Source: Chiloscyllium plagiosum (lineage: Eukaryota). From it: a DNA stretch of 56,991 nucleotides. Below the pieces are notes generated by a model, which was given only the letters and a program-made list of their open reading frames with translations, was not told the origin of the DNA and did not search any database. This document shows, in pieces, positions 562-56,312 of the stretch. Numbering within the stretch: position 1 is the stretch's first letter; every line of letters starts with the position of its first letter. The DNA lies in NCBI RefSeq assembly GCF_004010195.1, contig NC_057752.1:4093286-4150276 (forward strand), read 5' to 3'. The translations under genes and the position numbers were made by a program.

Positions 562-666
562 TCTCTGAAAGCTTGTGATTTCAAATAAACCTGTTGGACT
601 ATAACCTGGTGTTGTGTGACTTTTGACCTCATCCACCCCAGTCCAACACTGTCACCTCCACATCAT
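562..666 (+). mobile_element. PLE family A terminal-repeat 3' fragment
   Basis: gaaagcttgtgatttcaaataaacctgttggactataacctggtgttgtgtga...ccccagtccaacac matches the terminus of the GIY-YIG-bearing element at 48115-50309 and the copy at 15640-15767. Confidence 0.8.
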
Positions 667-1321
667 AACCATGAATTGGCATTGAATTATTGAAACCAAA
701 TTAGCATGTGTGTAACATCGCTGAGTCACGTACAATGATCTCCTTTGGCTTTGTGCATTTCTGTGACAGTGGGCTGGATTTAATGGAGCCTATCATGTAA
801 GGAAATGCAGAAGAGGTTGCACCTCATCTCCAGAGGGTGGGAAAACCTTCCACACTTACATTGGAGGCACAAATGGACCTGTAGGGAAACCCATCTGCTC
901 GTTGCAGCTTGTGAACAAGGGTTATTATTGAGCCAATGGCAACAGGTTATCTCTGAACCCACTGAAAATTATTGGTAGTGCAGCGATTAAGTGCAAGTGG
1001 CATGGTGTTTCTGTGCCTCAAGAAAGATGTCAGCCATGTTGGTTATCTCTGTGGTCTCCTTGAGGAAGGAGTACGGAGATCTCTTTCAACCCACTTAGCG
1101 CCCAGTTAAGGGACCCAGCATTAGGTAGTGTGATGGCTACGCAGCGCTATGCATTCTCTCATGATCCTATCTCCATTATCTCCATCTTGCCCTCGTTCAC
1201 CCATGTCTTGGGTCTCTCACTGATCCTCTATCTCTCTCTGGGTGCATAATTGTCAGCAATCACCGATCCTGGTAGCTGCTACTGACCAAGGAGAGTTACC
1301 AGCCTCTGATTAGCTATATCT

Positions 1322-2280
1322 CTTGGTGGATAGAATATAATGTGGGAAAATGTGAGGTTATGCAGTTTGGTGGGAAGAATAGAGGAACTGAATATTATTT
1401 AAATTGAGAAAGACTGCAAAAATCTACAGCACAAAGGAATTTGGGGTACCTTGTACATAAACCACAAAACACCAGCATACAGATTCAACAGATAATAGGG
1501 AAGGCAAAAGGAATAAAATTTCAAAGGGAATAAAAATAGGGATGTCTTGCTAAATCTAAACAAGGCACTAGTTAGACTTCACCTGGACTGCAATGAGTAA
1601 TTTTGATCCCCTTGTCAAAGGAAAGATACACTGACATTGTATACAATCCAGGGAAGGTTAACTAGTTTGATTTTGGGTGTGGAGGGTTTGTCTTGTGAGG
1701 AGAGGTTGAGTCAGTCACGCCTGTACTTGTTAGAGTTTAGGAGAATGAGAGGAGACCTAATTGAAACATACAAATTCTTAGGAGACTTGACAGGGCAAAT
1801 ATAGAAAGTTTGTTTCTCCTTGTGTGAGAACCCAGGACCAGAAGGTATAATCTCAGATTAAGGGCTCACTCATGTAAAACAGAGACGAGAAGGGATTTTC
1901 TCTCTCAGAGGGTAGTGAATTTGTGAAATTCTTTTCTGTTGAGGCTGGGTCGTTAAGTATATTCAAGGCTGAGACAGATTTTTAATCAGAAAAGCCAAAG
2001 ACCTGCGGATGGTGGAAATCAGAAACAAAAACAGAAATTGCAGGAAAAATTCAGCAGGTCTGGCAGCATCTGTGGAGAGAAAGTAGAATCAACATTTTGG
2101 GTCCTATGACTCTCCTTCAGAATTTTCAGATTTTTAATCAATAAGGGCATCAAAGTATCTGTGGAAAAGGGAGGAATGTGGAGTTAAGGATTATCAAATC
2201 AGCCATGATCTCATTGAATGAGAGAGCAGACTCAATGGGCCTATTGGCCTACTTCTGCTCCTGTGTCTTATAGTCTTATG
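1322..2280 (+). mobile_element. CR1 LINE 3' portion (RT C-terminus and 3' UTR), decayed
   Basis: aatgtgggaaaatgtgagg (NVGKCEV), agaggagacctaattgaaacatac (RGDLIETY) and CR1 tail ggcctacttctgctcctgtgtcttatagtcttatg. Confidence 0.9.
1989..2126 (-). mobile_element. PLE family C terminal fragment inserted in the CR1 3' UTR
   Basis: Similar to 55716-55965; flanked by 14-bp direct repeat cagatttttaatca (1975-1988, 2127-2140). Confidence 0.75.
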
Positions 2281-6431: not shown

Positions 6432-6630
6432 CCATGACATGGAGGTGCCGGTAGTGGACTGGGGTGGACAAAGTTAAAAATCACACAACACCAGATTATA
6501 GTCCAACAGGTTTATTTGGAAGGACTAGCTTTCTGAGTGCAGCTATCTGACGAAGGAGCAGCACTCCGAAAGCTATACTTCCAAATAAACCTGTTGGACT
6601 ATAACCTGGTGTTGTGTGATTTTTTAACTA
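6432..6630. mobile_element. Palindromic mini-PLE, family A
   Basis: Inverted arms (aaaaatcacacaacaccag..tccaacaggtttatttggaag / cttccaaataaacctgttgga..gtgtgattttt); 12-bp TSD tgtataaagtag (6420-6431, 6631-6642). Confidence 0.88.
6544..6578 (+). ncRNA. Minimal hammerhead ribozyme motif (family A)
   Basis: CTGACGA-A-GGAG..CTCC-GAAA-GCTA; core at 6547-6553 and 6568-6571. Confidence 0.6.
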
Positions 6631-6674
6631 TGTATAAAGTAGTTTAAGCTTATAGATTCACTTATTAGTTTGTA

Positions 6675-9508: not shown

Positions 9509-11520
9509 AGTCACAGAGTCACAGAGATGTACAGCATGGGGAACAGACCCTTCGGTCCAACTCATTCATGCCGACCAGATAGCCTAACCTAATCTGCCAG
9601 CACTTAGTTCATTTTCCTCAAAACCCTTCCGATTCATATACCCTCCCAGTTGCCTTTTAAATGCTGTAATTGTAACCAGCCTCCACCACTTCCACTGGTA
9701 GCTCATTCCATACACGTACCACCCTCTGTGTGAAAAGGTTGCCCCTTAGGTCCCTTTTAAATCTTTCCCCTCTCACCCTAAACCAATGGCATCTAGTTCT
9801 GGACTCCCCCAGCCGAGGGAAAGACCTTGTCTATTTACCCTATCCATGCCCCTCATGATTTTATAAACCTCTATAAGGTCACCCCTCAGCCTCTGACGCT
9901 CCAGGGAAAACAGCCCAAGCCTATTCAGCCTCTCCCTATAGCCCAAATCCCAACACTTGCAACATCCTTGTAAATCCTTTCTGAACCCTTTCAAGTTGCA
10001 TAACATCCTTCATATAGAAGGGAGACCAGAATTGCAGACAATATTCCAAAAGTGGCCGAACCAATGTCCTGTACAGCCGCAACATGACCTCCCAACTCCA
10101 ATACTCCAATACTCAATACCAATAAAAGAAAGCATACCAAACACTTCTTTACTATCCTATCTTTCTGCGACTCCATTTTCAAGGAACTATAAACCTGCAC
10201 TCCAAGGTCTCTTTGTTCAGCAACACTCTCCAGGACTTTACCATTAAATCCTTGTAAATCTTTTCTAAACCCTTTCAAGTTGCATAACATCCTTCATATA
10301 GAAGGGAGACCAGAATTGCAGACAATATTCCAAAAGTGGCCGAACCAATGTCCTGTACAGCCGCAACATGACCTCCCAACTCCAATACTCCAATACTCAA
10401 TACCAATAAAAGAAAGCATACCAAACACTTCTTTACTATCCTATCTTTCTGCGACTCCATTTTCAAGGAACTATAAACCTGCACTCCAAGGTCTCTTTGT
10501 TCAGCAACACTCTCCAGGACTTTACCATTAAGTGTATAAGTTCTGCCCTGATTTGCCTTTCCAAAATGCAGCACCTCACATTTATCTGAATTAAACTTCA
10601 TCTGCCAGTCCTTGGCCCATTGGCCCATCTGATCAAGATCCCGTTGTAATCTGAGGTAACATTCTTCGCTGTCCACTACACCTCCAATTTTGGTGTCGCT
10701 TGCAAACTTATTAACTATACTTCCTATGTTCACATCCAAATCATTTATATAAATGATAAAAAGCAGTGGACCCAGCAGCGATCCTTGAGACCTCCAGTCT
10801 CAAAGGTAACCCTCCACTACAACCCTCTATTTTCTACCTTCAATCAAGCCAGTTCTGTATGCAAATGGCCAGTTCTCCCTGTATTCCATGAGATCTAACC
10901 TTACTAACCAGTCTACCGTGACAAGCCTTGTTGAACACCTTACCGAAGTCCATAGAGATCACATCCACCGCTCTGCCCTCATCAATTCTCTTTGTTACTT
11001 CTTCAAAAAAACTCAATCAAGTTTGTGAGACATCATTTCCCACACACAAGTCCATGTTAACTATCTGTAATCAGTCCTTGCCTTTCCAAATACATGTAAA
11101 ATTTGTCTCTCAGGATTCCCTCCAACAACTTGCCCACCACTGACGTCAGGCTCACTGTCTATAGTACCCTGGCTTATACTTACCACTTTTCTTAAATAAA
11201 GGCACCATCTTAGCCAACCTCCAGTCTTCCGGCATCTCACCTGTGATTATTGATGATACAAATATCTCAGCAAGAGGCCCAGCAATCACTTCCCACAGAG
11301 TCCAAGGGTACACCTGATTAGGTCCTGGGGTTTATCCACCTTTATGCATTTTAAGACAGCCAGCACTTCCTCCTCTGTAATATGTACATTGTTCAGGATG
11401 TCACCATCTTATTCCCCACAATCTATATCTTCATTCCCCACAGTAAACACAATGCAAAAAACTCATTTAGAATCGCCCCCATCTCCTGCGATTCCACACA
11501 TAGGCTACCTTGCTGATCTT
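9509..11520 (-). mobile_element. HER1/CR1 LINE, ~2 kb 5'-truncated copy
   Basis: Minus-strand ORFs KFASDTKIGGVVDSEE..LQRDLDQMGQWAKDWQMKFNSDKCEVLHFG and LRGDLIEVYKIMRG; HER1-type (agtcacag)n tail at 9509. Confidence 0.93.
9964..10531. repeat. 284-bp tandem duplication inside the HER1 copy
   Basis: 9964-10247 repeated at 10248-10531, near identical (ORF track shows the same peptides twice). Confidence 0.9.
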
Positions 11521-12722: not shown

Positions 12723-12865
12723 AAATTGATGGAAAACTGACAAGAATCAGTTTCTGCTTAGGTAGGGCTGGTCAGTGGAATGGAAATTGAATCTGCACCA
12801 AAGCGGTATTAGATACTGTAAGTAAACTGACATGGAAGACAGACTAACTCTCCCTTTGTCAGATG

Positions 12866-13048
12866 ATGTGGAGGAGCCGGTGTTGACTGGGGTGTACAAA
12901 GATAAAAATCACACAACATCAGGTTATTGTCCAACAGGTTTATTTGGAAGCACTAGCTTTCAGAATGTTACCACCTGATGAAGGAGCAGTGCTCCTAAAG
13001 TTAGTGCTTCCAAACAAACCTGTTGGACTATAACCTAGTGATTTTTAA
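12866..13048. mobile_element. Palindromic mini-PLE, family A, with degenerate hammerhead core
   Basis: Inverted arms; ctgatgaaggagcagtgctcctaaag; TSD ctttgtcagatg (12854-12865) / ctttgtcaaatg (13049-13060). Confidence 0.85.
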
Positions 13049-14879
13049 CTTTGTCAAATGGATATTTACCAGATTAATATCTTGTTAATGGTTAACTGTT
13101 AAATGTTATCATAAGATCAAGAATCAAATTTTAGATCTTGTGATCAGCGTGATGCTTTTCTTCTTTTTGTTACTCAGCCATTCTGTCCAAAGTCTCCCCC
13201 CACATCTCCCTCCTAATCCTGAGGCCTTTCTTTTACTTCATCTTGACTGCAATGAGTGAAGTATTTTCCTCAGAGACATAGCATGGTTAACATGCTGCCT
13301 TACATGCCTGCCTGTTCTCCATACAGCCGTTTAATCCTTTCAAAATGAATATGCAAACAATGACATTCAAATCTGTCATAAAAACTATTTGCCCAAGAGC
13401 AGTGCCCAACCCCCATAAGATCCATGCAACACTTTATTTTTTCTACATATTTCCCACACTCCTGCTACCCCCTCCCTGACCACACCCCACTCATTATCTC
13501 ATCAGTCTGTCTGCAAGAGATGCACAAACATGGAATGAAACTTTCTCTGACTTTGTCTCTGTCCCTCCCTCCCCTGCAGGGAAGCACAGATAAGAGTACA
13601 AACTCAGCATAGAGCACAGGTTGGAGGTAGGCTGGGTTCTGTCAAGCAGTGTCACAACATAGTGACTTTCCCTAGTGGCAGTGTGAAGGACACATCTATT
13701 TTACTAACTTGCAGGAGCTGCACTCTCCCACTCATCATTGAACTCTCCAGGTTTAGCACTAAGTCAAAGCTGCAAACAGATTGGGTGCTAAAATTTAAGG
13801 GAATACTCACTCCTTTTTTCTTGTCACATTATATCAACACCTGATTTAGGCTGCATAGATAGATATGAATCACAAAACACAAGACAAAGCCACTAAGCCC
13901 ATCACTTCTGAACTAATTTTACAAGGCAGTTATCTAAGTAGCTATCTCCGACCTTTCCCTCTAGCCTATAGCCATAAAATATTAAAGAGTACTCCAGTTT
14001 CCCTTGTGCAACCTCTTATTAAATTTTCTTCCATTGTCCTTTTAAGCATCTTGTGACCACTCTGCGTCACAGGCTTGGGCTCAGCTCTGAAGCCTTCTAT
14101 CAAGGAATAGCTGGACAACACTGCCTCGAGTAGGGGTGAAGTATCAGAGAGATACTGAGAGTGATAGAACCATATCCTAGCGGTATACACCACGTTCAGG
14201 AGCAGAGCCGAGCAAACTGGGAAATTGGCATCTTGGAAAATGTCATTATCCTTCATGGTTTATGTCCTTTCTTAAGATGTTGCATATTTCATTCATATTT
14301 TGTAGGGTTTCACGAAAGAATTATTGTCAAAAAGCAGCACAGCAGATTAGTGTATCATAAAATAAATAAAGCACACAAGAAGGCCATTCAGCGATTGAAT
14401 CTGCACTGACTCTTTCAAATTGCAATCAAGTTAGTCCCACTCCCCTGCTTTTCCCCATGCCTCTGCAAATTTTTTCTCCTTCAAGTATTTTTCTAATTCC
14501 CTTTTGAAGGCAACTATCAAATCTGTATTCACCTTATCAGGCAGTACATTCCAAATTGTAACTACTTGCTAGGAAACCTTTTTCCTCATCATCTCTGGTT
14601 CTTTAATAGTTGGTTACTTGAAATCAATGGCCCCTTCCTGATCCTTTGTCACACATGCGACAGCTGTAGTAAATATTGACCATGTATGTTGCTGTCTTAA
14701 TTTTCACATAAAGCAGTAAGATTTCACAAGCTGAAAGTATTTTTTATTCCCTGATGTGACTCTGTTCTATGTTTATTTCTTACCATGGTTTTTAAAAATA
14801 AAACTTGAGGTAAAACTACTTCCATTTTGTTTTTCTACTGCATGCACTAACCAGAGTTGAGAGAGCAGTCAGAGACTTG

Positions 14880-15238
14880 ATCTGCAACATTCCCTAGGAC
14901 CTTATCATTAAGTGTATAAGTCCTGCTAAAATTTGCCTTTCCAAAATGCAGCACCTCACATTTATCTGAATTAAACTCCATCAGCCCATCTGATCAAGAT
15001 CCCGTTGTACTCTGACGTAACCTTCTTTGCTATGCACTACACCTCCATTTTTGGTGTCATCTGCAAACTTACTAACTACTCCTGTGTTCACATCCAAATC
15101 ATTTATATAAATGATGAAAAGTAGTGGACCCGGCACCAAGACTTGTGGCACTCCACTGGTCACAGGCCTCCAGTCTGAAAAACAACCTTCCACCACCACT
15201 TTCTATCCTCTACCTTAGAACTAGTTCTGTATCCAAAT
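14880..15238 (-). mobile_element. HER1/CR1 RT fragment
   Basis: ORF 14981-15199: SDWRPVTSGVPQVLVPGPLLFIIYINDLD..KFADDTK. Confidence 0.93.
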
Positions 15239-15240
15239 GA

Positions 15241-15767
15241 TCAGACTGATTCTAATCTAAAAAACGGATTTACAGAATCTTACATGGATTCATGCATTAT
15301 TTGAGCAAACTAAAATGTAATTCTGCAAGTTATTTAGATTAGAATCCGTTTTTTTAGATTAGAATCAGTCTGACCATTGTGGCACAGACAGCCTCACAGG
15401 GAGCTAACACCTTCAATACCTTATCTGGGCCGACATGACACCAATTGTTAAAGTTCATTTGAGAATGTAACTTCTAAAAAAGTTTTGCAATTTACATATG
15501 AAAGAACTGAAACCAACATGGTCATTCTAAAAGATGAGAGACTTAATAAACAATCCAGGTCTTTTTCAATATATAATTTCAGTTACATCACACTGTAAAC
15601 TTTTGCTATAAATTCTGTGTCTTACAATCTTATTCTCCACAATCATCTGATGAAGGAGCAGTGCTCCGAAAGCTAGTGCTTCGAATTAAACCTGGTGGAC
15701 AATAACGTAGTGTTGTGTGATTTTTAACTTTGTACACCCCAGTCCAACATCAGCATCTCCAAATCAT
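15241..15767 (+). mobile_element. PLE family A 3' UTR/terminal repeat with short inverted 5' segment
   Basis: 15241-15330 is inverted relative to the UTR (compare 49545-49640); 15343-15767 is colinear with 49605-50309 and ends in the tail gtacaccccagtccaacatcagcatctccaaatcat. Confidence 0.85.
15644..15678 (+). ncRNA. Minimal hammerhead ribozyme motif (family A, intact)
   Basis: cat-CTGATGA-A-GGAGC-AGT-GCTCC-GAAA-GCTA-gtg: core, 5-bp stem II, palindromic AGCU stem III, predicted cleavage after CUA (15675), 3-bp stem I. Confidence 0.75.
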
Positions 15768-18900: not shown

Positions 18901-19290
18901 TCGCCACACCCAGTGCAAACCCTTAACAGCCAAAGTTTGACATAAATGCATCTGTCAGTTATGACATACTTATTCGCACATTTGTCACCAAATCACAAGG
19001 TTCCAGTTGCAAGCCATTGTCAAGATCTGAATACAGAAATAAAGGCTGAAATCTGACATTGAGTGAGTGCTGTCTTTTTGGATGAGATGCTAACCGAGGA
19101 TCTGATTTGCATGTTCAGGTGGCTGTGAAAGACCCCTTTCGAACTATATTGAAGAAGTATCAGTTGAATAACCACAGTAACCTAACCGAACCTAATCTCC
19201 CTCGATCAACAGCACCAGATAAAGATCTAGTCATTATCACATTGCTCTTTGTGGAAGCTTGCTGTGCACAAATTGACTGGTGCATTTCTT

Positions 19291-19519
19291 AGCTGAAAAT
19301 GTGTTGCTGGAAAAGCGCAGCAGGTCAGGCAGCATCCAAGGAACAGGAGAATCGACGTTTCGGGCATAAGCCCTTCTTCAGGAAAGGCTGATTCCTGAAG
19401 AAGGGCTTATGCCCGAAACGTCGATTCTCCTGTTCCTTGGATGCTGCCTGACCTGCTGCGCTTTTCCAGCAACACATTTTCAGCTCTGATCTCCAGCATC
19501 TGCAGCCCTCACTTTCTTT
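19291..19519. mobile_element. Palindromic mini-PLE, family B (perfect 94-bp arms)
   Basis: 19291-19384 is the reverse complement of 19392-19485 with a 7-nt spacer; ~34-nt tail; TSD ctggtgcatttctta (19277-19291, 19520-19534). Confidence 0.92.
19392..19425 (+). ncRNA. Minimal hammerhead ribozyme motif (family B); mirror copy on the minus strand at 19351-19384
   Basis: CTGAAGA-A-GGGC-TTAT-GCCC-GAAAC-GTC; palindromic ACGU stem III, GUC triplet. Confidence 0.75.
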
Positions 19520-19730
19520 CTGGTGCATTTCTTACATTTACAACAGTGACTATAATTAAGAAAGTATTTCATTGGCTGTAAAGCTTTATGAGACATCTGA
19601 TGGTCCTGCAAAGAGCTATATAAATGCAAGTATTTGCTTTTATTTTTAAAGTCTGCATCCTTCATCACAAGGAGCAAGGATTGGCTGCTTCTGGAACTGG
19701 TAAAGAAATACTTCACTGCATTAAGATTTA

Positions 19731-21635: not shown

Positions 21636-22047
21636 GGACTTAGTTGTTAGCACTGTTCAGAGTGTGGTGCTGGAAAAGCACAGCAGGTTAGGCAGTATCA
21701 GAGGAGCAGGAGAATCGACGTTTCAGGTATAAGCCCTTCATCAGGAATGATCGGGAAGGGCTAATGCCTGAAGCGTCAATTTTCCTGCTCCTCGGATGCT
21801 GCCTGACCTGCTGTGCTTTTCCCGCACCACACTCTCGACTCTGATCGCCAGCATCTGCAGTCCTCACATTCTCCTGGTTAGCTCTGTTGCCTCACAGCGC
21901 CAGGTACCCAGATTCAATTCCTCCCTTGAGCTACTGTCTGTGTGGAGTTTGCACATTCTCCCCGTGCCTGTGGAGGTTTCCTCCAGGTGCTCCAGTTTCC
22001 TTCCACGGTCCAAAGGTGTGCATATCAGGTGGACTGACCATGCTAAA
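21633..22047 (+). mobile_element. HE1 V-SINE interrupted in its tRNA head by a mini-PLE
   Basis: gttagc.ctgttgcctcacagcgccagg..ctgtctgtgtggagtttgcacattctcccc V-domain. Confidence 0.85.
21658..21876. mobile_element. Palindromic mini-PLE, family B
   Basis: Inverted arms agagtgtggtgctggaaaagcacagcagg / cctgctgtgcttttcccgcaccacactct; TSD gttagcactgtt (21646-21657) / gttagctctgtt (21877-21888); degenerate hammerhead cores. Confidence 0.85.
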
Positions 22048-24574: not shown

Positions 24575-24970
24575 AGTATAGTAGTTTTCATGATCATTGG
24601 ACAGCTCAAAACATTTTACAGCCAACATTTTGAGAAGTTGGTACTTTTTGATTTGCAGTCTTTGTTGTAATGTAAGAACCGTTGCAGACAAATTTTGCAC
24701 AGAAAGATCCCACAAATGGCAACGTGACAATAACCAGACAATGTGTGTTGTGTGACAAGGATAAATATTGGGCAAGACAGCAGAAAGCTCTCCCCTGCTC
24801 TCAAATTCAAATATGCGGGATTTCGCATGTCCATCTGCCTGTTGCTGTAGTTTAACATCTCATCTGAGCACCCCAGGCAATGCAGCATTCCCTCAGTACT
24901 GAACTGGAGTGTCAAACTAGATGTCAGGCATCCAAGAAACCTTTCTGGGTGAGATTCTTCAGTAGTGCCA
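24575..24970 (-). mobile_element. DeuSINE
   Basis: ttttacagccaac..tgttgtaatgta..gatcccacaaatggcaacgtg..aatattgggcaagac..ctctcccctgctct..tccctcagtactg. Confidence 0.7.
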
Positions 24971-27267
24971 AACAATAGAACAACAACAAAAGGAAATTAC
25001 TGCTGAGAAATACTTAGCAGACCAGGCAGCATCTATGAAGTGAAACAGAACCAACTTTTCAGGTCATGACTTTACATGAAGAAGTCAATGATTTAGCAGT
25101 TTATGTGAGGTTAAGAATGTGGATGAGGGAACAAGAAAAGACAAACGGAATGGCAGGCAGGAATAACAAAAGGGTTCACAGTGGAGGGTGAAGTTGGAGG
25201 ACTATGGCAGAAGCAGCAACATATCGACATGGAGGAGAACTCCATCACAGTAGCAGAACCATCATCAGCAACTACTCACCTACTCTTTGAGGTTTATCTA
25301 AAGTTATCAAAACCTGTATTGAGGTAAAAGGATGCAAGCTTGTCTTATCAAAAGATACAGTTTATTCCTCAATCTCCCATTGCCCAAACAATGAGCACTT
25401 GACTGTTTTGACTCCATGTTAACCAACAACTGGTCTGCTTGTCCCACCATCCTAAACATTTCCCAGGGAGGCATGCAGACAGCAGAGAGGAAAAGTGTTC
25501 ATTGCCATCTGGCTTGAAAGATGACAGCATAGTGTCTAAGCTACTGTATCTCCAGGCACTCCAGTTAGCTTATTAACACATTTCTCATTTATTACGATCA
25601 TTTTTGAAGCCATTGCCCTCTTGCTTTTGAAGTAATTCAAGAATTTGTCAATCTGGGGAAACAATTGTCATATAGTTGATTATCTCTGCCCTGAGGGGGA
25701 TGAGTGAGTGAGGCATCAATCAAAGTAGAGACCAGGAAGGGTGGGGAGGCTAAACATGCGAAAGGAAGGTCGACGGAATGGGTGTAGTCCAATAACTCAC
25801 TGATACTTAAAGCTTTGCTATGTGTTTGGCAGCTCAAAGGCTTGAATTAACCAGTTCTGACAAGTCTTGTCCTAGGATTCCTCTGAGACTGAATGGGTGC
25901 AGGCATTTTGCTGAGGTGTTTGCAGGTTTTACTTTTTCTCATACAACTCAAGTTTGAATAATGACCAGGTACTGAGGCCCAGAAGAGAGCCAGTCATCAT
26001 TGTACGTGCCCCAACTGTGCTGGAATCACCAATCTCAGCAAGCACAACAGTCAGTGTGCCATAATGGGCTTCAGTGAGGGAAGATTAATATAAAGCATCT
26101 GCCAGTTCCTATACTCTTCACTGGAATCTAGTAACAGTTGTTTGAAAGGTGATGTATATAGACACCAAGGGAGAGCAGGGTTGATGTTACTTCATCACTA
26201 CCACTACCTTTCACCCCAGTTGACCAGTTTCCCAACAGTTAGCACCTGGTAAATAGGCAAACAGCTCCCTACAGTTCTCACCACATGTTTTGGTGATTGT
26301 AGTCATCCTTTCGGACTGCGATGGATGGAGTGAGGATCCTGATATACATTGATAAAGGTGCTTTTGGAGGTGCTGCACCCAATGTCAAACATTTTTCAGG
26401 TATTGTGCACAACTTTATCCTATAAAAGGTTTGAGTGAATTAGGAGAAAGCTAGTGATCGAGATATCATTCTGTTAAAGGGGAGGAGAGAGTTTTAAGGT
26501 TTTATACAAAAGTAAGTACTGTTTAGAGAATAGAAATAAGGCATTTGTGCTCCCCCTTTAATTACAGCAGAATTGGGAGAGGTAAGCTTTGAGGCACTTA
26601 ATTTTAGAGGGTGAGGTGTTACTGGTATCCAGGGAGGAAAATTAAAAATATTTGTGTGTACCTTGCCTGCCCTAGTTTGGTCATTGAACTTCTTTCTGCA
26701 CTGATATGCAATTTTATAGGTGAAAGAATTGGTAATCAGTAGTGATGTCCCCTCCCTCCACACTACCAGGGACATTTTTTTCTCTGGCCTTCTCCATTTT
26801 TGACCTTGCCCAGGAGAGGTTTAGGGTTACTATCATAAACACTGCAACCCCTTCTTTTATCCATCATTAACTCGCCCTTGTCCCCCTTACAGTTATCGGT
26901 GACAGATCCTTGCCATTCCTGAAAGGTGGCAATGAGCAGCCTGGAGTGCAACTCACTGATGGTGAATGGAATAATCCAAATGCTTTGCCACTTATCTGTA
27001 GCTATCCTTGCCTGCTGCTGCTTCCATCTTCCTTTTCAAAGGCTGTACTCAGTACTAAGCACTTCCACTCCCCAGCACATTATTTTGCATGGGATTTATG
27101 CCAATGGATCCTCTAATTCACATGCAAACATGGCGTGCCTTGGAATTTTGGAGAAGTAAGAACAGACATGGTCCAGGCAAAGCTTACTCCATGATTGACA
27201 AAACTCACCATATGGAATTCTGGAACTTATGTCTTTAGTATAATTGAGCAAAGAGTTGTTATCTCAT

Positions 27268-28094: not shown

Positions 28095-31027
28095 ATTGTG
28101 GGGTTCAGCCAGTATTTATTGCACATCCCTAATTGCCCTTGAGCAGAAGGTGGTAAACTGCCTTTTTGAATCACTGCAGTCCATGTGCAGTAGTAGACCC
28201 ATAACACTATGAGGAAGGGAATTCCAGGATTTTGGCCCACCTACACTGAAGGAACAATGATATATTTCCAAGTCAGGATGGTGCATAACTTGAAGGGGAA
28301 ATTGCAGGTGGTGGATCTGCTGCCCTATCCTTTCAGGTGGTAATCATTATGGTTTTGGAAGATGCTGCTTCGGGAACATGGGAGAATTTCTGCAGTGTAT
28401 CTTATGGATGGTATCACTGAGTGTTGGTGGTCAAGGCAGTGAATGTGAGTAGGGTACCAATTGAGCAGGCTGTTTTGTACTGGATGGCATTGAGGGATTT
28501 GAAATTGTTGGAGCTGCACTCATTCAAGTAAGTGGGGAGTATTCCATCCTACTCCTGACCTGTGCCTTGTAGATGGTATCAAGGTCAGAAGTCATGTCAC
28601 ACTGGGTTAGAGTCCAACAGGTTTATTTGAAATCACAAGTTTTTAAAGCACTGCCCCTTCATCAGGTGAAGTGACTGTAACATGGTGTTGTGTGACTTCT
28701 GACCTTGTCCACCCTAGTCCAACACCAGCACCTCCATATTGTAGATGGTGGACAGGTTTTGGGGAGTTAGGAGGTAAGTTACTTGCTGCAGGGTACCTAG
28801 CCTCTGACCTGCTCTTGTTGCCACTGGTTCAGTTCAGTTTCTGATCAATGATAGCCCCCACAATGCTGATTGGGGGGATTCAGTGATGGTAGCACCATTG
28901 AATATCAAGGGGGGGCGAGTTAGATTCCCTCTTGTTACAGATGGTCATTTCCTGACATTTGTGTGGTGCAAATGTTACTTCCCATGTTTCAGTTGAAGCC
29001 TAGATATTGTCCAGGTCTTGCTGCATTTGGAGATGGACAGCTTCAGTATCTGGGGAGTCGTGAATGGTGCTGAACATTGTGCAATCAGTGAACACTTCCA
29101 TTTCTGATCTTATGATGGAAGAACAGTATTGATGTCGCAGCTGAAGATGATTGGATCAAGGATACTACCCTGAGGAACTCCTGCAGAGCTGTTTAGGAGC
29201 TGACATGACTAATGTCCAACAAAGACCATCCTCCCATGTGCCAGGTATGATTCCAACCAGGAGTCTTAACTTGATTCCCATTGATTTCAGTTTTGCTAGG
29301 GCTCCTCAACGCGATACTTGGTCAAATACAGCCTTGATATCAAAGATATTCACTTTCACCTCGCCTTTGGAATCCAATTCCCATATGTGAACCAAGGCTG
29401 TAGTAAGTTTAGGAACTGGGTGGCCTTGGCAGAACCCAAACTGGGCGTCACTGAGAAGGTTATTGCTGAGCAGGTGCTGCTTGATAGCACAATGGATGGC
29501 ACCTTCCATCACTTCACTCATGATCGAAAGTAAATTGATGGGGTGGTAATTGTCCGGGTTGGATTTGTTCTGCTTTTTGTTTACAGCACATATCTGGGTA
29601 ATTTTCCACATTGTCAAGGTGTCATTGTTGTAACTGTACTGGAACAGCTTGGCTCGAGATGCAGCAAATTCTGGAGCACAAGTCTTCAGTACTATTGCTG
29701 GAAGGATGTCAGGGCCCATAGCCTTTCCAATGCCCAGTGTCTCCAACCAATACTTGATATCATGTTGAATGAATTGAATTAGCTGAAGACTGACATCTGT
29801 GATGCTAAGGACCTCTGGAGGAGTCCAAGATGTGTTATCCACTTGGCACTTCTGGCTGAATATTGTTGTGAATGCTTTACCCTTAACTTTTGCGCTGATG
29901 TTTTGGGCTCCTCTGTTCTGGAGGATGGAGATGTTTGTGGGGCCTCCTCTTCTGGTAAATGTCCATCACCATTCATCACTAGATGTGGCAGGACTACAGA
30001 TATTACATCTGATTCATTGGTTGTAGAATTGCTTACCTCTATACATCATTTGCTGTTTATACTGTTTCACTCTGTAACATGATGGAGGGTATTCTCAATG
30101 TGAAGGTAAAATTTCAAGGACTGCACTTTGGTCACTTTTATTGATACTGTCATGGACAAATGCATCTGTGGCAGACAGACTGGTAAGGATGAGATCAAAT
30201 TTGTTTTCCCTCTTATTGGCTCCCTCACTACCTGCTGAACAGCAAATCAAGCAGGTATGTCATTAAATTATACAGCACAGAAGAGGCCCTTTAGAAACCA
30301 ACCAGTTCAATCAGTAGTACGGCTGCCAAGACACCTTTGGTGCTGGGCATTGAAGTTCCCTACCCAGAGTACATTCTGTGCCCTCACCACCCTCAGTGCT
30401 TCCTTAGAGTGCTGTTCAGCATGGAGGAGTACTGATTCATCAGCTGAGGGCAAGCAGTACATGGTGAGCAGTAGTAGGTTTCCATGCCCTTGTCTGATCT
30501 GATGCTGTGAGCCTTCATGATGTCCAGAGTCAATGTTGAGGACTACTAGGGTAGCTGCCTCCCAACTGTATACAAGTGTTCCACAACCTCTGCTGGCTCT
30601 GTCCTGCCAGTGGAACAGGACATAGCCAATGATGGTGATGGTGTTGTCTGAGACGTTGTGTGAAAGATATGACTGTCAGGCTGTTGCTTGAGTAGTCTGT
30701 GAGACAACAATCCCAATTTTGCACTAGTTCCCAGATGTTAGTAAAGAGGATTTTACAGAGGGTTGTTGCCCTTGTCATTTCTGGTGCTTTAGCCATTGCC
30801 AGGTGATCCATGCAGTTTTATTCCATTTTTCCTTTCTAGCATTTGATACATCTGAATAGCTTTCTAGACCATTTCAGGGGCAGTTAAGAGTCAACCACAT
30901 TCCTTGGGTTTGGAGAGCAGGTGATGAAACAAATAGTTATATTCCAATTTTTTAAAAATTAAATTATCCACATCCCCAGAACATTACCTTAGTCTCTGAC
31001 AATATCCACTCGGCCATCACCTCCCCC
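28095..31027 (-). mobile_element. CR1/L2-superfamily (Zenon-like) LINE, near full length, decayed, with tRNA-like 5' head
   Basis: ORF 29306-29842: KAMGPDILPAIVLKTCAPE..KSNPDNYHPINLLS..LLSDAQFGFCQG..DIKAVFDQV; head remnant ggggaggtgatggccgagtgg on the minus strand at 30965-31027. Confidence 0.85.
28578..28738. mobile_element. Palindromic mini-PLE, family A variant, inside the LINE
   Basis: caaggtcagaagtca / tgacttctgaccttg arms; cccttcatcagg core on the minus strand; TSD ttgtagatggt (28567-28577, 28739-28749). Confidence 0.8.
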
Positions 31028-34436: not shown

Positions 34437-34589
34437 ATGGACTGCTTCAGTGTCTGAGCAGTTGTAAATCATTGAGACATAGAGGTCTACAGCACAGAAA
34501 CAAGCTCTTTGGCCCACCAAATCTGCGCCAGTCAAAACCAAGTGCTTAACTATTCTTCAGAATAGTTTTTCAGAACTTGGTCCAGTGCC

Positions 34590-35090
34590 CATCTCCATCA
34601 GTGACGACCGACTTGACCTCTCCATCTCCATCAGTGACGACCGACTTGACCTCTCCATCTCCATCAGTGACGACCGACTTGACACTGACATCTTCATCAG
34701 TGACGACCGACTTGACCTCTCCATCTCCATCAGTGACGACCGACTTGACCTCTCCATCTCCATCAGTGACGACCGACTTGACCTCTCCATCTCCATCAGT
34801 GACGACCGACTTGACCTCTCCATCTCCATCAGTGACGACCGACTTGACCTCTCCATCTCCATCAGTGACGACCGACTTGACCTCTCCATCTCCATCAGTG
34901 ACGACCGACTTGACCTCTCCATCTCCATCAGTGACGACCGACTTGACCTCTCCATCTCCATCAGTGACGACCGACTTGACCTCTCCATCTCCATCAGTGA
35001 CGACCGACTTGACCTCTCCATCTCCATCAGTGACGACCGACTTGACCTCTCCATCTCCATCAGTGACGACCGACTTGACACTGACATCTT
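34590..35090 (+). repeat. ~15 x 33-bp tandem repeat of PLE RT sequence
   Basis: Unit gacgaccgacttgacctctccatctccatcagt (DDRLDLSISIS), in frame with the downstream RT. Confidence 0.95.
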
Positions 35091-35609
35091 CTACAAACCC
35101 ACCGACTCCCACAGCGACCTGGATTACACCTCTTCCCACCCTATCTCATGCAAAAATGCCATCCCGTATTCCCAATTCCTCCGCCTCCGCCCTATCTGCT
35201 CCCAGGAGGAGCGGTTCCACCATAGAACACACCAGATGGCCTCCTTCTTTAGAGACCGCAATTTCCCTTCCCACGTGGTTAAAGATGCCCTCCAACGCAT
35301 CTCATCCACACCCCGCACCTCCGCCCTCAGACCCAACCCCACCAACCGCAACAAGGACAGAACGCCCCTAGTGCTCACCTTCCACCCTACCAACCTTCCC
35401 ATAAACCAAATCATCCGCCGACATTTCCGCCACCTCCAAACAGACCCCACCACCAGGGATATATTTCCCTCCCCACCCCTCTCCGCCTCCCGCAAAGACC
35501 GTTCCCNNNNNNNNNNNNNNNNNNNNNNNNNNNNNNNNNNNNNNNNACTCTCTCCCCACCCCCCCCCTCCTCTAGCTTATCTCTCCACGCTTCAGGCTCT
35601 CTGCCTTTA

Positions 35610-35644
35610 TTCCTGATGAAGGGCTTTTGCCCGAAACGTCGATT
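35610..35644 (+). ncRNA. Minimal hammerhead ribozyme motif in the PLE 3' terminus
   Basis: CTGATGA-A-GGGC-TTTT-GCCC-GAAAC-GTC at 35613-35640. Confidence 0.8.
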
Positions 35645-36799
35645 TTGCCTGTCCTCGGATGCTGCCTGAATTGCTGTGCTCTTCCAGCACCACTGATCCA
35701 GTGCCTTGTATGTCTTGGCATCACAAGTGTTCTTTTTTCATTCATTCATAGAGAATCATAGTCAGAGAATCATTGAGTCACACAGCATGGAAACAGACCT
35801 CATCTTAAATCATCATCCTCTGATTCTTTATCCTCCTAGTAGGAACAATCTCTATTTTATCTTGACTCCATGACTTTGAGCACTTCTATTAAATTTCCCC
35901 TGTAACCTTTTCCTCTCTAAACAGAAACCATGTTGTTTACTGTAATCTACCCAGATCATCAAATTCCCTGGAATCATTCTCGTGAATCTTTAGGCATCTT
36001 TCTAGTGACTTCACATTCTTTCTAAAGTGTGGATCCTAGAATTGGACACAATACTATAGTTGATGCCAAGTGTTTTGTAAAAAGGTTCACTGAAACATTC
36101 TTGCATTTGTACTCCAAGCCTTATTTATAAAGCCTAGAATCCCATATGATTTATTAACTACTCTCTAAACCTGTCTTGCCATTTATCAAGGATATTTTAT
36201 GTGTGCAGTTCAGTCCAGTCCATTGAATTGCAAATATATTACTTACTGAAGTCACCTTCTAGATCTTTCCTAATCAAGTTGTCCAGAGAAGTGTCTAATA
36301 TTGCCTCTCCTCATTCTTCCTTCCAAAATTAATCATTTTATATTTAATATATTACATTAAATTTTATCTGGAAAGATATACAGTTCTCATGCTTTTATAT
36401 ATATTGAATACAGGTATTAGAGATAGGTGAAAATCAAAAGGATTTGCTAGGTACTGAATCCAACTGAGCAATATATTTCTTTTACTTGATTCAGAATTAA
36501 AGGAAAGCCGAAAGTAATCACTTCCAGAAGTCCAAAAAACTTACAATGAACTTGTGAAAGAGCTATAACTCCTTCTTCCATCCTGATCCTTCATGGCTAA
36601 GAGGATATATGTTACCTGGTGCCTTGATCTCTGAAGTTGTAGTCCTGATGCTCAACACAGTACAATTATCAGCAAATATTCTCACTTCTCAAGTTAAGAT
36701 GGAGGAAAAGTCATTGACGAAGCAGCTGAAGATGTTTGGACCAAGGACAATAGCTTGTTGTACCTGCATGTTAAAAGGTCATGAGCTGAAACAGTGACT

Positions 36800-36897: not shown

Positions 36898-38120
36898 TAC
36901 ACTTGTATTTGTAATAAATGTTCATATTGATTTTAAAAGGCCAAAATGGAACAGCTGCAGAGATGTCCTGGGGCTGAGAGACTGACCTCCAATGACCACA
37001 GCCATCTTCTTGTGTGCCAGATAGGAGTCCAGTCATCTGAGAATTTTCGCCCGATTCCCATTGACTACGTTTTGCTCGAGCCACTTGATGCCACACTTGG
37101 TCGAATGCAGCCTTGATGTCAAGGGCTGTCACTCTCACCTCACCTTTGGAATTCAGCCCCTTTGTCCAGGTTTGAACCAAGGCTGTCATGAGGAACTGAG
37201 TGGCCCAGGCGGTACCCAAACTGGGCATCACTGAGCAGGTTATTGCTGAGCAGATGCTGCTTGATAGCACTGTGGATGACACCTTCCATCACTTTACTGA
37301 TGATCGAACGTTGACTGATGGGGTGGTAACAGGTCAGGTTAGATTTGTTCAGCTTGTTTTTTGTGTACAGGACATACCTAGGCAATTTTCCACATTGTCG
37401 GGTAGATGCCATGTTGTAATTGTACTGGAATAGCTTGGTGAAGGGAGTGGCAGGGTCTGGAGCACAACTCTTCAGAACTATTGCCAGAATGTTGTCAAGG
37501 CCTGTTGCTTTTGCAGTATCCAGTGCATTTAGCCATTTCTTGATATCACATGGATTAAATCAAATTGGCTGAAGCCTGGCCTTTGTGATTCTGGAGACCA
37601 CCGGAGGAGGCCAAGGTGGATCATTCATTCGGAGCTTCTGGCTGAAGAATGTGGCGAATCCTTCAGCCATATCCTTTGCACTGATGTGCTGGGCTCTTCC
37701 TTTCCTGAGGATGGAGATATTTGTGTCGTCACCCCCTCCAATGAGTTGTTTAATTTTTCACCACTATTCACAACTGGATGTAGTTAGACTGCAGATCTTA
37801 GATCTGATCCGTTGGTTGTGGGATTGCTTAGCTCTGTCTTTCACTTGCTGCTTATGCTGTTTGGCATGCAGGTAGTCATGTTTAGTAGATTCACCAAACT
37901 TACCCCTCATTTTTAGCTCTGCCTGGTGCTGCTCCTGGCATGCCCTACTGCGTTCTTCATTGAACCAGGTTTATCCCCTGGCTTGATGGTAATGGTTGAG
38001 TGGGGGATATGCCAGGTTATGAGGTTGTAGATTGTGATGGAGTACAATTCTGCTGCTGTTAATGGCCCACAGTGCCTTATAGATGCCTGGTCTTGAGTTT
38101 CTAGATCTGTTTGAAGTCTA

Positions 38121-38295
38121 GAGCTGAAAATGTGTTGCTGGAAAAGCGAAGCAGGTCAGGCAGCATCCAAGGAGCAGGAGAATCGACATTTCGGGCATGA
38201 GCCCTTCTTCAGGAATGCTGCCTGACCTGCTGTGCTTTTCCAGCAACACATTTTCAGCTCTGATCTCCAGCATCTGCAGTCCTCACTTTCTCCTC
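38121..38295. mobile_element. Palindromic mini-PLE, family B
   Basis: gagctgaaaatgtgttgctggaaaagc / gcttttccagcaacacattttcagctc arms; minus-strand CTGAAGAAGGGCTCATGCCCGAAA; 14-bp TSD ctgtttgaagtcta (38107-38120, 38296-38309). Confidence 0.9.
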
Positions 38296-47193: not shown

Positions 47194-48197
47194 GCACGGG
47201 ATAATGCATGCAAATCTTTTTATATTGAAAGGGAATGTTAGGGCTACTTGTAGCTGCCATTGTCATGTGACCTCTACCATGAGGCACTGACTTAGGGGCT
47301 GCCATCTCCAGTCACTTTAAATAAATTCACAGTACAGGTCAAAGTTTTTGCCTTACAAGCTCAAAACGCAATCTTCTCCAGTTGTCAGTTTCTTGATCTC
47401 TCTCCCCAGTTTCCAATGTCCTGCTCTTCTGTCTGTTGTCTATAGTTACATGCAGTTCCCCTCTTCTGCCCCCTTCCATTCCATGTAATGAAGACAAAAA
47501 ATATCAGAAATCATAGCATGGAGAGTCAGCAAGCTGACATTTCGAGTCTAGATAACTCTTTATCAGAGATTTTGTCTTCAGTACAAGGTTCCAGCATCTG
47601 CAGTAATTTGCTTTCCCTTTCATTCCATCCTCCCATGAAGTTGCTGACCCATGTTGCAGCATATTACCACAAGTAGTAACTACCATCCCAAAAACTGGTC
47701 ACACTATCTGAGCCAAAACAGTGAGCCAAGTATATGGGTTAGTGAGAAGTTGGGTTTACTGTGTTATTAAATGAGTTCAGGCCATTTATTTATTATCAAC
47801 AGTATCTCAGGATTTAAAGATTTATCAATAACGCTGAATCAAGTTGGGCCTGAATCAAGTACAGTTTCCTCTGCTTTAGTGGCTGTTACAGACTAGAGTT
47901 CAAGGGACTTACTCAAATACAATTAGTTTCTGGCGAATAATTAGCACTGGCCACCTAACATTCAGCATTTGTTGCCATTAGAAGTTATTTGAAACCTTGA
48001 TTCTTGCAAGCAGTTAATTTTATTAGGTCTCAGCTGTTTTATGTCGGAATTGCACCCAACTGGGCTCAGGCCTGGGCAGTTATCATTTCAAGCATAATCT
48101 GAATTGTATTGATTTGGAGATGCCGGTGTTGGACTGGGGCGGACAAAGTTAAAAATCACACAACACCAAGTTATAGTCCAACAGGTTTGTTTGGAAG

Positions 48198-48232
48198 CAC
48201 TAGCTTTCGGAGAGCTGCTCCTTCATCAGGTG
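48198..48232 (-). ncRNA. Minimal hammerhead motif in the inverted arm (degenerate partner at 50223-50258, + strand)
   Basis: Minus strand cac-CTGATGA-A-GGAG..CTCC-GAAA-GCTA-gtg. Confidence 0.65.
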
Positions 48233-48888
48233 GTCGTGGTGTAGAAGATCATAAGACACAGAATTTATAGCAAAAGTTTACAGTGTGATGAAACTGAAAC
48301 TATATATTGAAAAAGACCTGGATTGTTTGTTAAGTCTCTCATCTTTTAGAATGAACATGTTGTTTTCAGTTCTTTCATATGTAAATCGCAGAACATTTTA
48401 ACACAATTGGTGTCATGTCGGCCCAGATAATGCAGTTAAGGTGTGAGATGCCCTGTGTGAGACTATCTGTGCGACAATGTTCAGACTGATTCCAATCTAA
48501 AAATTAGATTTACAGAATCTTACATGGATTCATGCAGTCTTTGAACAAAGTAAAATGTAATTCTGCAAGTACAATTTCACCCCACAAACTTATATGTGTG
48601 CGTGTGTGTGTGTGTGTGTGTGGTGGGGGGGCGGAGGTTTATGAGTATCTGTGAGAGAGTGTGTGTATGTGAGTGTAAAGGGGTGTAAGCCTGTGAGAGT
48701 GTGCGTGTGTGCATGAGAGTGTACGTGTGAGCATATGAGAGCGCTTGTGTATGAGAAAGGGTCTGTGTGAGTGTATGGGTCTGTAGGAGTGTGTGTGTGT
48801 GTCTGTGGGAGTGTCTGTGTCTGTGGGAGTGTCTGTGTCTGTGTGTATGTCTATCTGTGAGTGTGCGTCTGTCTGTGTGCGCGCCTGT

Positions 48889-49198
48889 CATTGTCTATCT
48901 CATATGTTACAGGCAAGGATGCCCTGAGGCATGGTACATTGGTGAGATCGAGCAGAGGCTAGGGCAATGGATGAATGGACACCGCACAACAATCAACAGA
49001 CAGGAGTGTTCCCTCCCAGTCGGAGAACACTTCAGCGGTCCGGGACATTCGACCTTGGACCTTCGGGTGACCATTCTCCAAGGCGATCTTCGGGACAGGC
49101 AACAACGCAAAGTGGCCGAGCAGAGGCTTATAGCCAAGTTTGGTACCCATGGGGATTGCCTCAATCGGGACCTTGCGTTCATGTCACACTACAGGTGA
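48889..49198 (+). pseudogene. PLE GIY-YIG endonuclease C-terminal fragment
   Basis: IVYLIC..CPEAWYIGEIEQRLGQWMNGHR..PVGEHFSGPGH..RKVAEQRLIAKFGTHGDCLNRD. Confidence 0.88.
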
Positions 49199-49721
49199 CC
49201 CACAGCACTACACACACAGACAGACACGCACACACAGACACTCGTACACACAGATATTCCTACAGACACACACACACACACACTCCTACAGACCCATACA
49301 CTCTCACAGATCCTCTCTCATTCACAAGCTCTCTCTCATATGCTCACACATACACTCCCACACTCACAAACACACATATGTTTACACATACACTCCTACA
49401 CTCATACGCACCCTCTCACAGACTTATATCTCTTCACACTCACACACATACGCACACTCTCTCACAGACACTCATAACCCCCTCCACACCACACCATCAC
49501 CCCACCCCACCCCACACACACTTATAAGTTTGTGAGGTGAATTTGTACTTGCAAAATTACATTTTATTTTGCTCAAAAACTGCATAAATCCATGTAAGAT
49601 TCTGTAAATCCGTTATTTAGAACAGAATCAGTCTGAACATTATGACACAGGCAGTCTCACACAGGGCACCTCACATTACAGGTATCTGGGCCAACATGAC
49701 ACCACTTCTTCAAGTTCACTT

Positions 49722-50036
49722 AGATTAGATGCCCTACAGTGGGGAAACAGGCCCTTCGGCCCAACAAGTCCACACCGAACCTCCAAAGAGTAACCCACCA
49801 AGACCCATTTCCCTTAGACTAATGCATCTAACACTATGGGGCAATTTAGCAAGGCCAATCCACCTGACCTGCACATCCTTGGATTGTGGGAGGAAACCGG
49901 AGCACCCAGAGGAAACCCACGCAGACACAGGGAGAATGTGCAAACTCCACACAGACAGTCACACAAGGCTGGAATCGAACCCGGGTCCCTGGCGCTGTGA
50001 GGCTGGGGTGCTAACCACAGAGCCACCATGCCAGCC
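49722..50036 (-). mobile_element. HE1 V-SINE inserted in the PLE 3' UTR
   Basis: Full head, V-domain and tail on the minus strand; PLE UTR ...aagttcactt | aaagaaaatgtaac resumes afterwards (compare 15450-15475). Confidence 0.9.
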
Positions 50037-50574
50037 AAAGAAAATGTAACTTTAAAAAAGTTCTGCGATTTACATATGAAAGAACTGAAGCCAACATCTT
50101 CATTCTAAAAGATAAGAGACTTAACAAGCGATCCAGGTCTATTTTTAATATATAATTATAGTTACATCACACTGTAAACTTTTGCCATGAATTCTGTGTC
50201 TTACAATCTTATACTCCACAACCACCTGATGAAGGAACAGCGGTCCAAAAGCTAGTGCTTCCAAATAAACCTGTTGGATGAGAACCTGGTGTTGTGTGAT
50301 TTTAACTTTTGAATTGTATTGATTAGCTAACAGATGCCAAACGATGGTCTTGGTATGGGGAATGAGAAGAAAATAATTGCGTTAATGCTGCACATGAGGA
50401 GGACACTTGATCCATTGTTCCTGTGCTTGCTCTTTAGCAGAGCTAGCTAATTAATCCCACTCCCCTGTTCATTCCCTGAAGTCCAGCAAATGTTTTACTG
50501 CATGCTTTTCCACAATGGTGAAAGTATTTTCTTGAAACAATAGTCAGAGAGTTTTACAATCAAGCACCAGTCTT

Positions 50575-55715: not shown

Positions 55716-55965
55716 GAAAGCAGAAATTGCTAGAGAAACTTAGCAGGTCTTGCAGAATCTGTGGAGAGAAAACAGAGTCAATGTTTCAGGTCCAGTGATC
55801 CTTCATCGGAACACATCAGATAAAAATGCATTTTGATGAAGGGTCACTGGACCCAAAAACATTGACTCTGCTTTCATCCTCACAGATGCTGCCAGATCTG
55901 CTAGCCTCTCTAACAATATCTGTTCCTTTTTCAGATTTCCAGCACCTCCAGTTCTTGGTTTTATG
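55716..55965. mobile_element. Palindromic mini-PLE, family C (older)
   Basis: cagagtcaatgtttcaggtccagtgatccttcatc / tgatgaagggtcactggacccaaaaacattgactctg arms with degenerate hammerhead cores (stem II GGGTC-ACTG-GACCC). Confidence 0.75.
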
Positions 55966-56100
55966 CCCATGAGGTAATACTGCCATATTGTACAAGGTCA
56001 GCACTTTTGACATAAGTCAGAAAAAAGAAAAACACAGCACTTTTGTATGCTTATTCTCCCTAGTCCACTGGTTGAGCTTATTGTCTAAATTCAATAGTTA

Positions 56101-56312
56101 GAGTGTGGTGCTGGAAAAGCACAGCCGGTCAGGCAGCATCCGAGGAGCAGGAAAATCGACGTTTCAAGCATAAGTTCTTCACCCTCTTCCTGATGAAGAG
56201 CTTATGCTCGAAACATCAATTCTCCTGCTCCTTGGATGCTGCCTGACTGCCTGTGCTTTTCCAGCACCACATTCTCATCTCTGATCTCCAGCATATGCAT
56301 ACCCCACTTTTC
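56101..56312. mobile_element. Palindromic mini-PLE, family B
   Basis: Inverted arms; TSD ctaaattcaatagtta (56085-56100) / ctaaattcaactgtta (56313-56328). Confidence 0.88.
56187..56220 (+). ncRNA. Minimal hammerhead motif with compensatory stem II
   Basis: CTGATGA-A-GAGC-TTAT-GCTC-GAAAC-ATC. Confidence 0.65.

Follow-up and report, generated by a model that had tools for sequence, protein, structure and literature searches.

The window analysed here is a stretch of 56,991 nucleotides of the shark Chiloscyllium plagiosum (contig NC_057752.1, forward strand), and all positions given below are counted from its first letter. The window consists of repeat-rich animal DNA. Fragments of LINE-like RT and endonuclease, which we take from their motifs to be of the CR1/L2 type, are found at 99-578, 10275-10799, 29306-29965, 30307-30675 and 36803-37559, with RVT_1 matches at 99-575 and 29309-29965. 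A long GC-rich, strand-skewed and satellite-like array containing several long stop-free frames and a 500-N gap occupies 42313-46690, and a 284-nt direct tandem duplication with 99% identity, possibly an assembly artefact, is located at 9964-10531. The window also contains the copies of a short RNA motif that are the subject of this analysis, together with fragments of the ORFs of Penelope-like elements (PLEs).

The sequence at 15644-15678 (+), CAT-CTGATGA-A-GGAGC-AGT-GCTCC-GAA-AGCT-A-GTG, is, judged by its letters, a complete and intact minimal type-I hammerhead, a self-cutting RNA motif. The 5' arm of helix I (15644-46) is followed by the core (15647-53), an extra A (15654), stem II (15655-67), G12 to A14 (15668-70), the AGCT palindrome (15671-74), A17 (15675) and the 3' arm of helix I (15676-78). 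A previous reading of this DNA, made from the sequence only, had given the core, stem II, the palindrome and the cleavage base at 15675 exactly; our analysis adds a helix I of 3 bp (CAT/GTG, 15644-46/15676-78) with a closing U-G pair, position 15646 being T in this copy versus C in the rest of its family, family A, where the closing pair is C-G. The copies at 19395 and 35613 had also been described exactly (stem II GGGC/GCCC followed by GAA-ACGT-C, with N17 at 35640 for the latter).

The motif was compared with 500 dinucleotide shuffles of the window. The core, a paired stem II and GAAA occur together in 8 copies, for a mean of 0.068 and a maximum of 2 in the shuffles; adding the palindrome leaves 6 copies and none in 500 of 500 shuffles, and adding a helix I of at least 2 bp leaves 5 copies and again none in the dinucleotide shuffles. 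Chance hairpins that happen to be flanked by hammerhead-like sequence would fit the loose pattern without the stem, which is common by itself (17 occurrences for 11.7 expected, a number reached by 9 of 100 shuffles and not significant), the local folding z-scores of the motif, which are not significant either (-0.4 to -0.9 and +0.5), and the Rfam search, in which the 20 matches at E<=5 included no hammerhead family and only miRNA-like hairpins below the gathering scores. A missing Rfam match would, however, be expected for motifs with a loopless helix III, and four families share this architecture and its position within PLE ends. The shuffle test and the linkage to PLEs leave chance a negligible probability, and we consider it ruled out.

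The motif is found in 18 tabulated copies. Three PLE families had been proposed, and these (A, B and C) are present, but a fourth one (D, at 47566 on the minus strand) and further copies had been missed. The families had also been said to differ in sequence outside the structure, which is true of A versus B and C, while B and C are homologous downstream of the motif (~71% identity over 99 nt, E 3e-7). Five of the 18 copies are intact (15647+, 48229-, 19395+, 19381- and 35613+) and 13 are damaged. The core carries nine changes in total, five of them at G12, which follows C11.1 as a CpG, and we infer that the copies decay after insertion by CpG loss at C11.1-G12 and in ACGT.

Family A is represented by the copy at 15647, which belongs to a 5'-truncated arm at 15343..15767 (+) comprising 3' UTR, hammerhead and tail, with an inverted internal piece (15227-15330, -) before it. 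The genomic 3' end of the family maps to ~15767, where the coverage by family-A DNA contigs stops sharply; 54,030 and 46,041 contigs covering 501 bp of family A were counted in two DNA runs at 80% likeness. The 15647 copy is 84% identical over ~420 nt to a head-to-head insertion at 48115..50309 that is flanked by a 15-17-bp TSD. The minus arm of this insertion contains the hammerhead 48229, intact except for its loop-closing pair, and a tail, and the plus arm contains a GIY-YIG fragment, a 3' UTR with a 315-bp insert (49718-50032) and the hammerhead 50226 (G12A, no tail). The insert is one of three ~315-bp SINE-like repeats, the others being located at 40479-40791 and 56375-56706. Smaller head-to-head insertions of family A lie at 6434..6634 (14-bp TSD; hammerhead 6547(+) without G1.1) and 12863..13055 (12-bp TSD; hammerhead 12975(+) with G12U and a broken palindrome). 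Subfamily 2 of family A contributes another one at 28580..28741 (12-bp TSD; hammerhead 28665(-) with G12A) and an arm at 563..667 (+) that starts inside stem II.

The head-to-head insertion of family B at 19291..19520 (16-bp TSD) holds two intact hammerheads, 19395+ and 19381-, locked in one long hairpin, and the arm at 35609..35693 (+) has an intact hammerhead with C3 at 35613, C17 at 35640 and a helix I of 2 bp, U-U and 1 bp. Other head-to-head insertions of this family are those at 21655..21875 (12-bp TSD; both hammerheads damaged or truncated), 38120..38293 (15-bp TSD; hammerhead 38212(-) with AUGU in place of ACGU) and 56098..56312 (10-bp TSD; A10.2-U11.2 in both arms). In the last one the minus arm is cut at N7, and the hammerhead 56190(+) has the stem GAGC/GCTC previously given for it, but its tetramer is ACAT and not ACGT, position 1.1 is A, and helix I is lost. 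Family C forms a head-to-head insertion at 55721..55960 and a single arm at 1990..2125 (-, 15-bp TSD; hammerhead 2120 with A9G and G12A). In the former the stem GGGTC/GACCC reported at ~55840 is real (copy 55833+), but T stands in place of C3 and A in place of G12, and there is one surplus A, which means that the CTGANGA...GAAA pattern attributed to this copy is absent from it; its partner 55809- carries U4C and ACAT. The family-D insertion, also head-to-head, occupies 47481..47612 (14-bp TSD), and its hammerhead 47566(-) has the stem GAGTT/GACTC, G8A and AUGU. Further decayed ends resembling B and C, with a stem of GGTC-ATG(A)-GAC/GCT type and perhaps of a fifth family, were seen at 36770-36895 (+) and 24960-25090 (-).

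TSDs of 10-17 bp were found in 10 of the 15 units tested, and nine of these ten are head-to-head pairs. Because one TSD bounds the pair, each TSD-flanked head-to-head pair is counted as one insertion. A TSD was looked for and not found at 15226-15767, 55715-55960, 36770-36895, 563-667 and the 35613 unit.

Base pairs were counted in an explicit register; a MAFFT alignment of 16 motifs placed family A out of register. The extra nucleotide between 9 and 10.1 is A in all 18 motifs, and pair 10.1-11.1 is G-C in 13 and G-U in 5 of them. Pair 10.3-11.3 is A-U in family A versus G-C in B, C and D, pair 10.4-11.4 is G-C, C-G or U-A depending on the family, and pair 15.2-16.2 is G-C in A and C-G in B; over all 18 copies this last pair is G-C in 4, C-G in 6 and broken, mostly by CpG-type changes, in the remaining 8. 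Helix I measures 3-4 bp in A, 2 bp plus U-U plus 1 bp in B and 2-4 bp in C. When each family is represented by a single set of pairs, all 16 pairs are Watson-Crick (permutation fraction 0.005, uncorrected for relatedness and for the hairpin-based choice of motifs); the reference pairs of the four sets were defined by hand from the copies, and family D is a single copy. Pairs 10.3-11.3, 10.4-11.4 and 15.2-16.2 switch type between the families and stay paired, which supports the earlier claim that the structure was kept across families. Departures within families comprise 7 one-sided, 5 broken and 2 both-sided cells. Both of these last cells belong to the 56098-56312 insertion, one in each arm, and therefore represent one event in the source lineage: the GAGC/GCTC change, which had been called compensatory, is a real both-sided change but the single one within families, and it probably came from the source element and was inherited by both arms. 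The covariation is between families, with a single both-sided change within them. Changed bases amount to 3/110 in the core versus 25/300 in the flank (ten copies, a small sample of copies found through their cores), and the lower core change could mean selection after insertion.

The linkage to PLEs is given by ORF fragments. The plus arm of the 48115-50309 insertion contains at 48881..49198 (+) a putative C-terminal fragment of a PLE GIY-YIG endonuclease with CCHH residues, 57% identical to P0017, an 882-aa RT+EN ORF with a CX4CX2C linker (Neptune/Nematis type). Pfam gave no match to this fragment, and its assignment to GIY-YIG is based on homologues and on motifs read by eye, as are the CX4CX2C linker and CCHH in P0017/P0001. 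Its closest protein relatives are from bamboo, epaulette and cat sharks, the best two at 83% and 87%. From the fragment to the family-A hammerhead 50226 there is a 3' UTR of ~710 nt, the 315-bp insert subtracted, and fragment, 3' UTR and hammerhead all lie within the one TSD-bounded insertion. A CX2-5CxxC linker and a CCHH GIY-YIG are described as traits of Neptune-clade PLEs (PMC8557442). Family A appears to go with ORFs of the Neptune/Nematis linker type, Nematis being a possible assignment, and differs in this from Poseidon, which is described as lacking the linker (PMC8557442). An RT thumb/linker fragment of a PLE at 35053..35505 (+), 28% identical to residues 561-707 of P0017 (E 2e-15), lies upstream of the family-B hammerhead 35613, with a 40-N gap (35507-35546) between them; EN was not seen there. 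A 33-bp tandem array of ~16-20 copies at 34490-35215 forms an in-frame fusion upstream of this fragment, and its unit resembles the coding stretch right after the array. These fragments place the hammerheads of families A and B in PLE pLTRs, and those of C and D are tied to PLEs indirectly, by homology to B, TSDs and architecture. The motif anatomy and the nearby ORF fragments support the identification as minimal PLE hammerheads that had been made before.

The genomic 3' end of family A is at CATCAT (15760-15767), and the commonest DNA loose end past 15767 starts with GACT. The tail may stop at an ORF start codon (ATG ACT, compared with Met-Thr in P0017), a weak suggestion given a consensus agreement of 0.37. 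Scans of viral contigs gave 0 matches with the family-A pattern and 19 pattern matches, 0 of them confirmed, with P0017; a metagenome scan gave 4 loci, none like the shark elements beyond the pattern itself, and a PDB search using P0017 returned nothing useful.

It had been proposed that dispersed copies could pair, either in trans or inside a single long intronic transcript, and would in this way form double hammerheads and cut host RNA. The palindromic tetramers do allow two molecules to form a helix III of 4 bp, a schistosome minimal hammerhead (min-HHR) was cleaved at a low level in dimer and trimer constructs (PMC4209133), and B19395 and B35613 are both intact and on the same strand. These two copies are, however, 16 kb apart, and B19395 lies inside a ~94-bp perfect hairpin. 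The head-to-head units in general fold as long hairpins that bury the motif, the strongest being 19278-19498 at -200 kcal/mol; 38212 is an exception, with a short partner arm and stem II retained. The two intact family-A copies are on opposite strands, leaving A15647 without an intact same-strand partner, and AGCU and ACGU are unable to pair with each other. For 15647 the models give the double hammerhead -14.1 kcal/mol, a pair of monomers -19.8 and the best dimer -31.9. All the intact copies modelled favour two monomers over the double hammerhead, by 5.7 kcal/mol for A15647 and by 5.3-9.5 for the B copies. A tandem dimer also remained uncut in vitro in 8 of 9 Xenopus cases (bioRxiv 10.64898/2026.07.22.740005). 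As for an intronic transcript, the search for host exons gave 0 Pfam matches in 143 of 216 candidate non-repeat frames, a search that short exons can escape, the other frames being the 66 shortest and 7 that are PLE fragments or had already been scanned. With 13 of 18 copies damaged, and given the orientations, the hairpin burial, the non-matching A and B palindromes, the disfavoured double hammerhead and the lack of a host exon in that search, neither form of the proposal is borne out, and we consider pairing among dispersed copies highly improbable.

In the predicted monomer folds stem II forms and helix I does not. The minimum-energy fold of the 41-43-nt motif contains a hairpin AAGC-UAGU-GCUU at 15670-15681 that overlaps helix III, N17 and helix I; in the models it competes with helices I and III in 15647 and is a possible off-state. 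A related hairpin with different bases is conceivable by eye in subfamily 2 (563, 28665). The long head-to-head hairpins at 19278-19498, 6504-6596, 12931-13026, 38128-38255 and 55779-55864 have weak scores against miRNA models, and such hairpins of PLE ends are potential sources of dsRNA or small RNA.

Family A has a further element downstream of the hammerhead. The hexamer ATTAAA lies 10 nt past the predicted cut, at 15685..15690 (+), and the corresponding hexamer in the nine family-A arms is AATAAA in 6 and AACAAA in 2, ATTAAA being that of the 15647 copy. A hexamer, poly(A) sites shortly after it and then a GU/U-rich stretch are the standard layout of a cleavage-polyadenylation signal; in this arm a GU/U-rich stretch is found at ~15709-15727. 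RNA reads were taken from one single-cell poly(A) run of the same species, of which ~2% was read, giving 3749 reads on family A. Only 21 of these match at >=99%, so that the reads report family A and not the 15647 locus. Most of the read depth is in the orientation expected of RNA sense to the hammerhead. Loose ends with A-runs place family-level poly(A) addition at 15700..15705 (+), 10-15 nt past the hexamer, with 330 reads at 15700 and 316 at 15705 (646 of 3749), and 249 more reads are clipped at 15678 and run into the same A-ending sequence. Past 15705 the sense depth falls from 941 to 333 while the opposite orientation is flat. The genomic sequence at 15700/15705 is not A-rich, no arm in the window ends there, and the DNA loose ends among those listed (six per run; 18 of 1426) are elsewhere. 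The polyadenylation signal of family A is apparently in use, although much of the read count may come from duplicates or from a small number of loci.

The hammerhead and AAUAAA of family A could form one 3'-end module, in which slow or protein-triggered cleavage detaches the poly(A) end and limits or redirects the PLE RNA. The hexamer, poly(A) sites and GU-rich stretch in textbook order, the A-run reads and the fall in sense depth agree with this, and the Clec2 3'-UTR hammerhead, which like that of family A cuts just upstream of a polyadenylation signal, acts in this manner (PMC6765202). Our hand count of the 56 motifs in Fig. S3 of PMC4209133 found AAUAAA in the printed 3' flanks of 9 and AUUAAA in 2 more, with none in the 5' flanks, but the flanks are AU-rich and the count had no shuffle control. 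Families B and C have no such hexamer in their aligned 3' part, the adjacency may merely reflect a compact pLTR, and the reads possibly derive from few loci or duplicates; we regard the module as doubtful.

The start points of 19 family-A and family-B arms were also compared. Eight are ~2-6 nt upstream of C3, 5 are within the motif, 2 are ~20 nt past the cut and 4 reach far upstream, while none begins at the scissile bond, which argues that the RNA that was copied had not been cut. The poly(A) reads have a depth of 1474 before the cut site and 1367 across it, and uncut polyadenylated RNA therefore exists; no pile-up of starts or ends was seen at the cut among the 3749 reads of this poly(A)-primed library, in which neither a 5' product lacking poly(A) nor a 3' product of 25-30 nt would be visible. 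The Poseidon element PAc of Anolis carolinensis (Frangieh et al. 2024, PMC11167929) is described in similar terms, with a hammerhead in the pLTR, a genomic 3' end that bears a tail, a template consisting predominantly of uncut RNA and, as reported there, no RNA-seq ends at the cut site. Its hammerhead, the only one of a vertebrate PLE that has been tried with its protein, cuts only when that protein is present, and is dispensable for insertion in vitro (PMC11167929).

If the family-A pLTR worked like a retroviral R region and the RNA started just upstream of the hammerhead, the clustering of insertion 5' ends there would be explained. AAUAAA would be passed over in the 5' copy and serve in the 3' copy, and protein-triggered cleavage would strip the poly(A) as a switch between mRNA and template. 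We offer this only tentatively, as an improbable reading; if it were true, copies numbering tens of thousands or more would also spread functional poly(A) sites through the genomes of sharks.

The same starts could indicate that the main reason for keeping the fold is protein binding or the marking of a template boundary, as an RNA start or an RT stop or switch point, cleavage being incidental. The arms begin just upstream of the motif and not at the cut, polyadenylated RNA across the cut site is abundant, hammerhead mutants had no effect on insertion in vitro (PMC11167929) and Naiad PLEs proliferate without canonical hammerheads (PMC8557442). The nucleotides common to all families are, on the other hand, the catalytic ones (C3, G8, G12 and NUH), and the anole motif cuts in a core-dependent manner when its protein is present (PMC11167929). 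We regard such a main role as unlikely.

The reading that we favour, with a probability of about 0.82, is that these are minimal type-I hammerheads in the pLTRs of several EN-bearing PLE families, and that the dispersed copies in the window are passive. The fold would have been selected in the RNA of the parent elements, and its most likely function is a weak, assisted cleavage of that RNA, occurring only with the help of the PLE protein and/or of a second pLTR copy that supplies the 4-bp palindromic helix III; the activity of min-HHR dimers is low (PMC4209133). The form that is reverse-transcribed would be the uncut RNA. The window copies would then be passive, 5'-truncated and often head-to-head insertions that have decayed since insertion and most likely leave host RNA uncut, and the family-A pLTR would in addition bear a polyadenylation signal, in use in some of the copies.

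The min-HHR class was described in 2014 by Cervera and De la Pena (PMC4209133), including its stem covariation and palindromic helix III, along with the dimer hypothesis. The shark motifs share with the min-HHRs of metazoan PLE pLTRs the CUGANGA core with an extra nucleotide, G10.1-C11.1, the loopless palindromic helix III, a short helix I, the presence of several co-varying families in one genome and the predominance of solo truncated copies with pairs on opposite strands; in Fig. S3 the turtle row also shows AAUAAA after AGCU, and the row of a coral Neptune combines a 4-bp stem of GGGC type with ACGU-C (PMC4209133). The shark stems II are, however, short (4-5 bp), and helix I is shorter than the 4-5 bp of schistosomes, yet within the range of Fig. 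S3. Cartilaginous fish are absent from the 56 rows of that figure and from Table S1, and the description of the 3' flank in that paper terms it AU-rich only and reports no poly(A) use (PMC4209133). The EN+ PLE insertions of Craig et al. (2021, PMC8557442) have the same 5' truncation, adjacent inverted truncated copy, TSD of variable length and 30-40-bp tail at one end only, whereas many of the shark units span just 140-240 bp, with the turn at the hammerhead. Non-LTR retrozymes (bioRxiv 10.64898/2026.07.22.740005) also carry type-I hammerheads from PLE pLTRs, and one chondrichthyan is reported among them, but they form head-to-tail arrays with at least 2 consecutive hammerheads, unlike the solo or head-to-head shark copies. 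Every multi-copy unit in the window is head-to-head, and the head-to-tail architecture of retrozymes is absent from it; the chondrichthyan retrozyme families of that 2026 preprint may overlap the shark families. The Clec2 hammerhead differs from these motifs in being domesticated, split and proven active (PMC6765202), the shark one being a minimal mobile-element motif known from its sequence.

In a literature search of mainly open-access sources, Repbase aside, we found no report of shark PLE hammerheads and none linking PLE hammerheads to a poly(A) signal, and the adjoining, apparently used poly(A) signal of family A is the sole element for which we found no earlier description. Our results add a shark example to a hammerhead class known since 2014. 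The cut site, AAUAAA and poly(A) site of family A form a compact construct for asking whether cleavage controls the 3'-end formation of PLE RNA, and the abundance of family-A copies suggests that host transcripts can acquire poly(A) sites from them.
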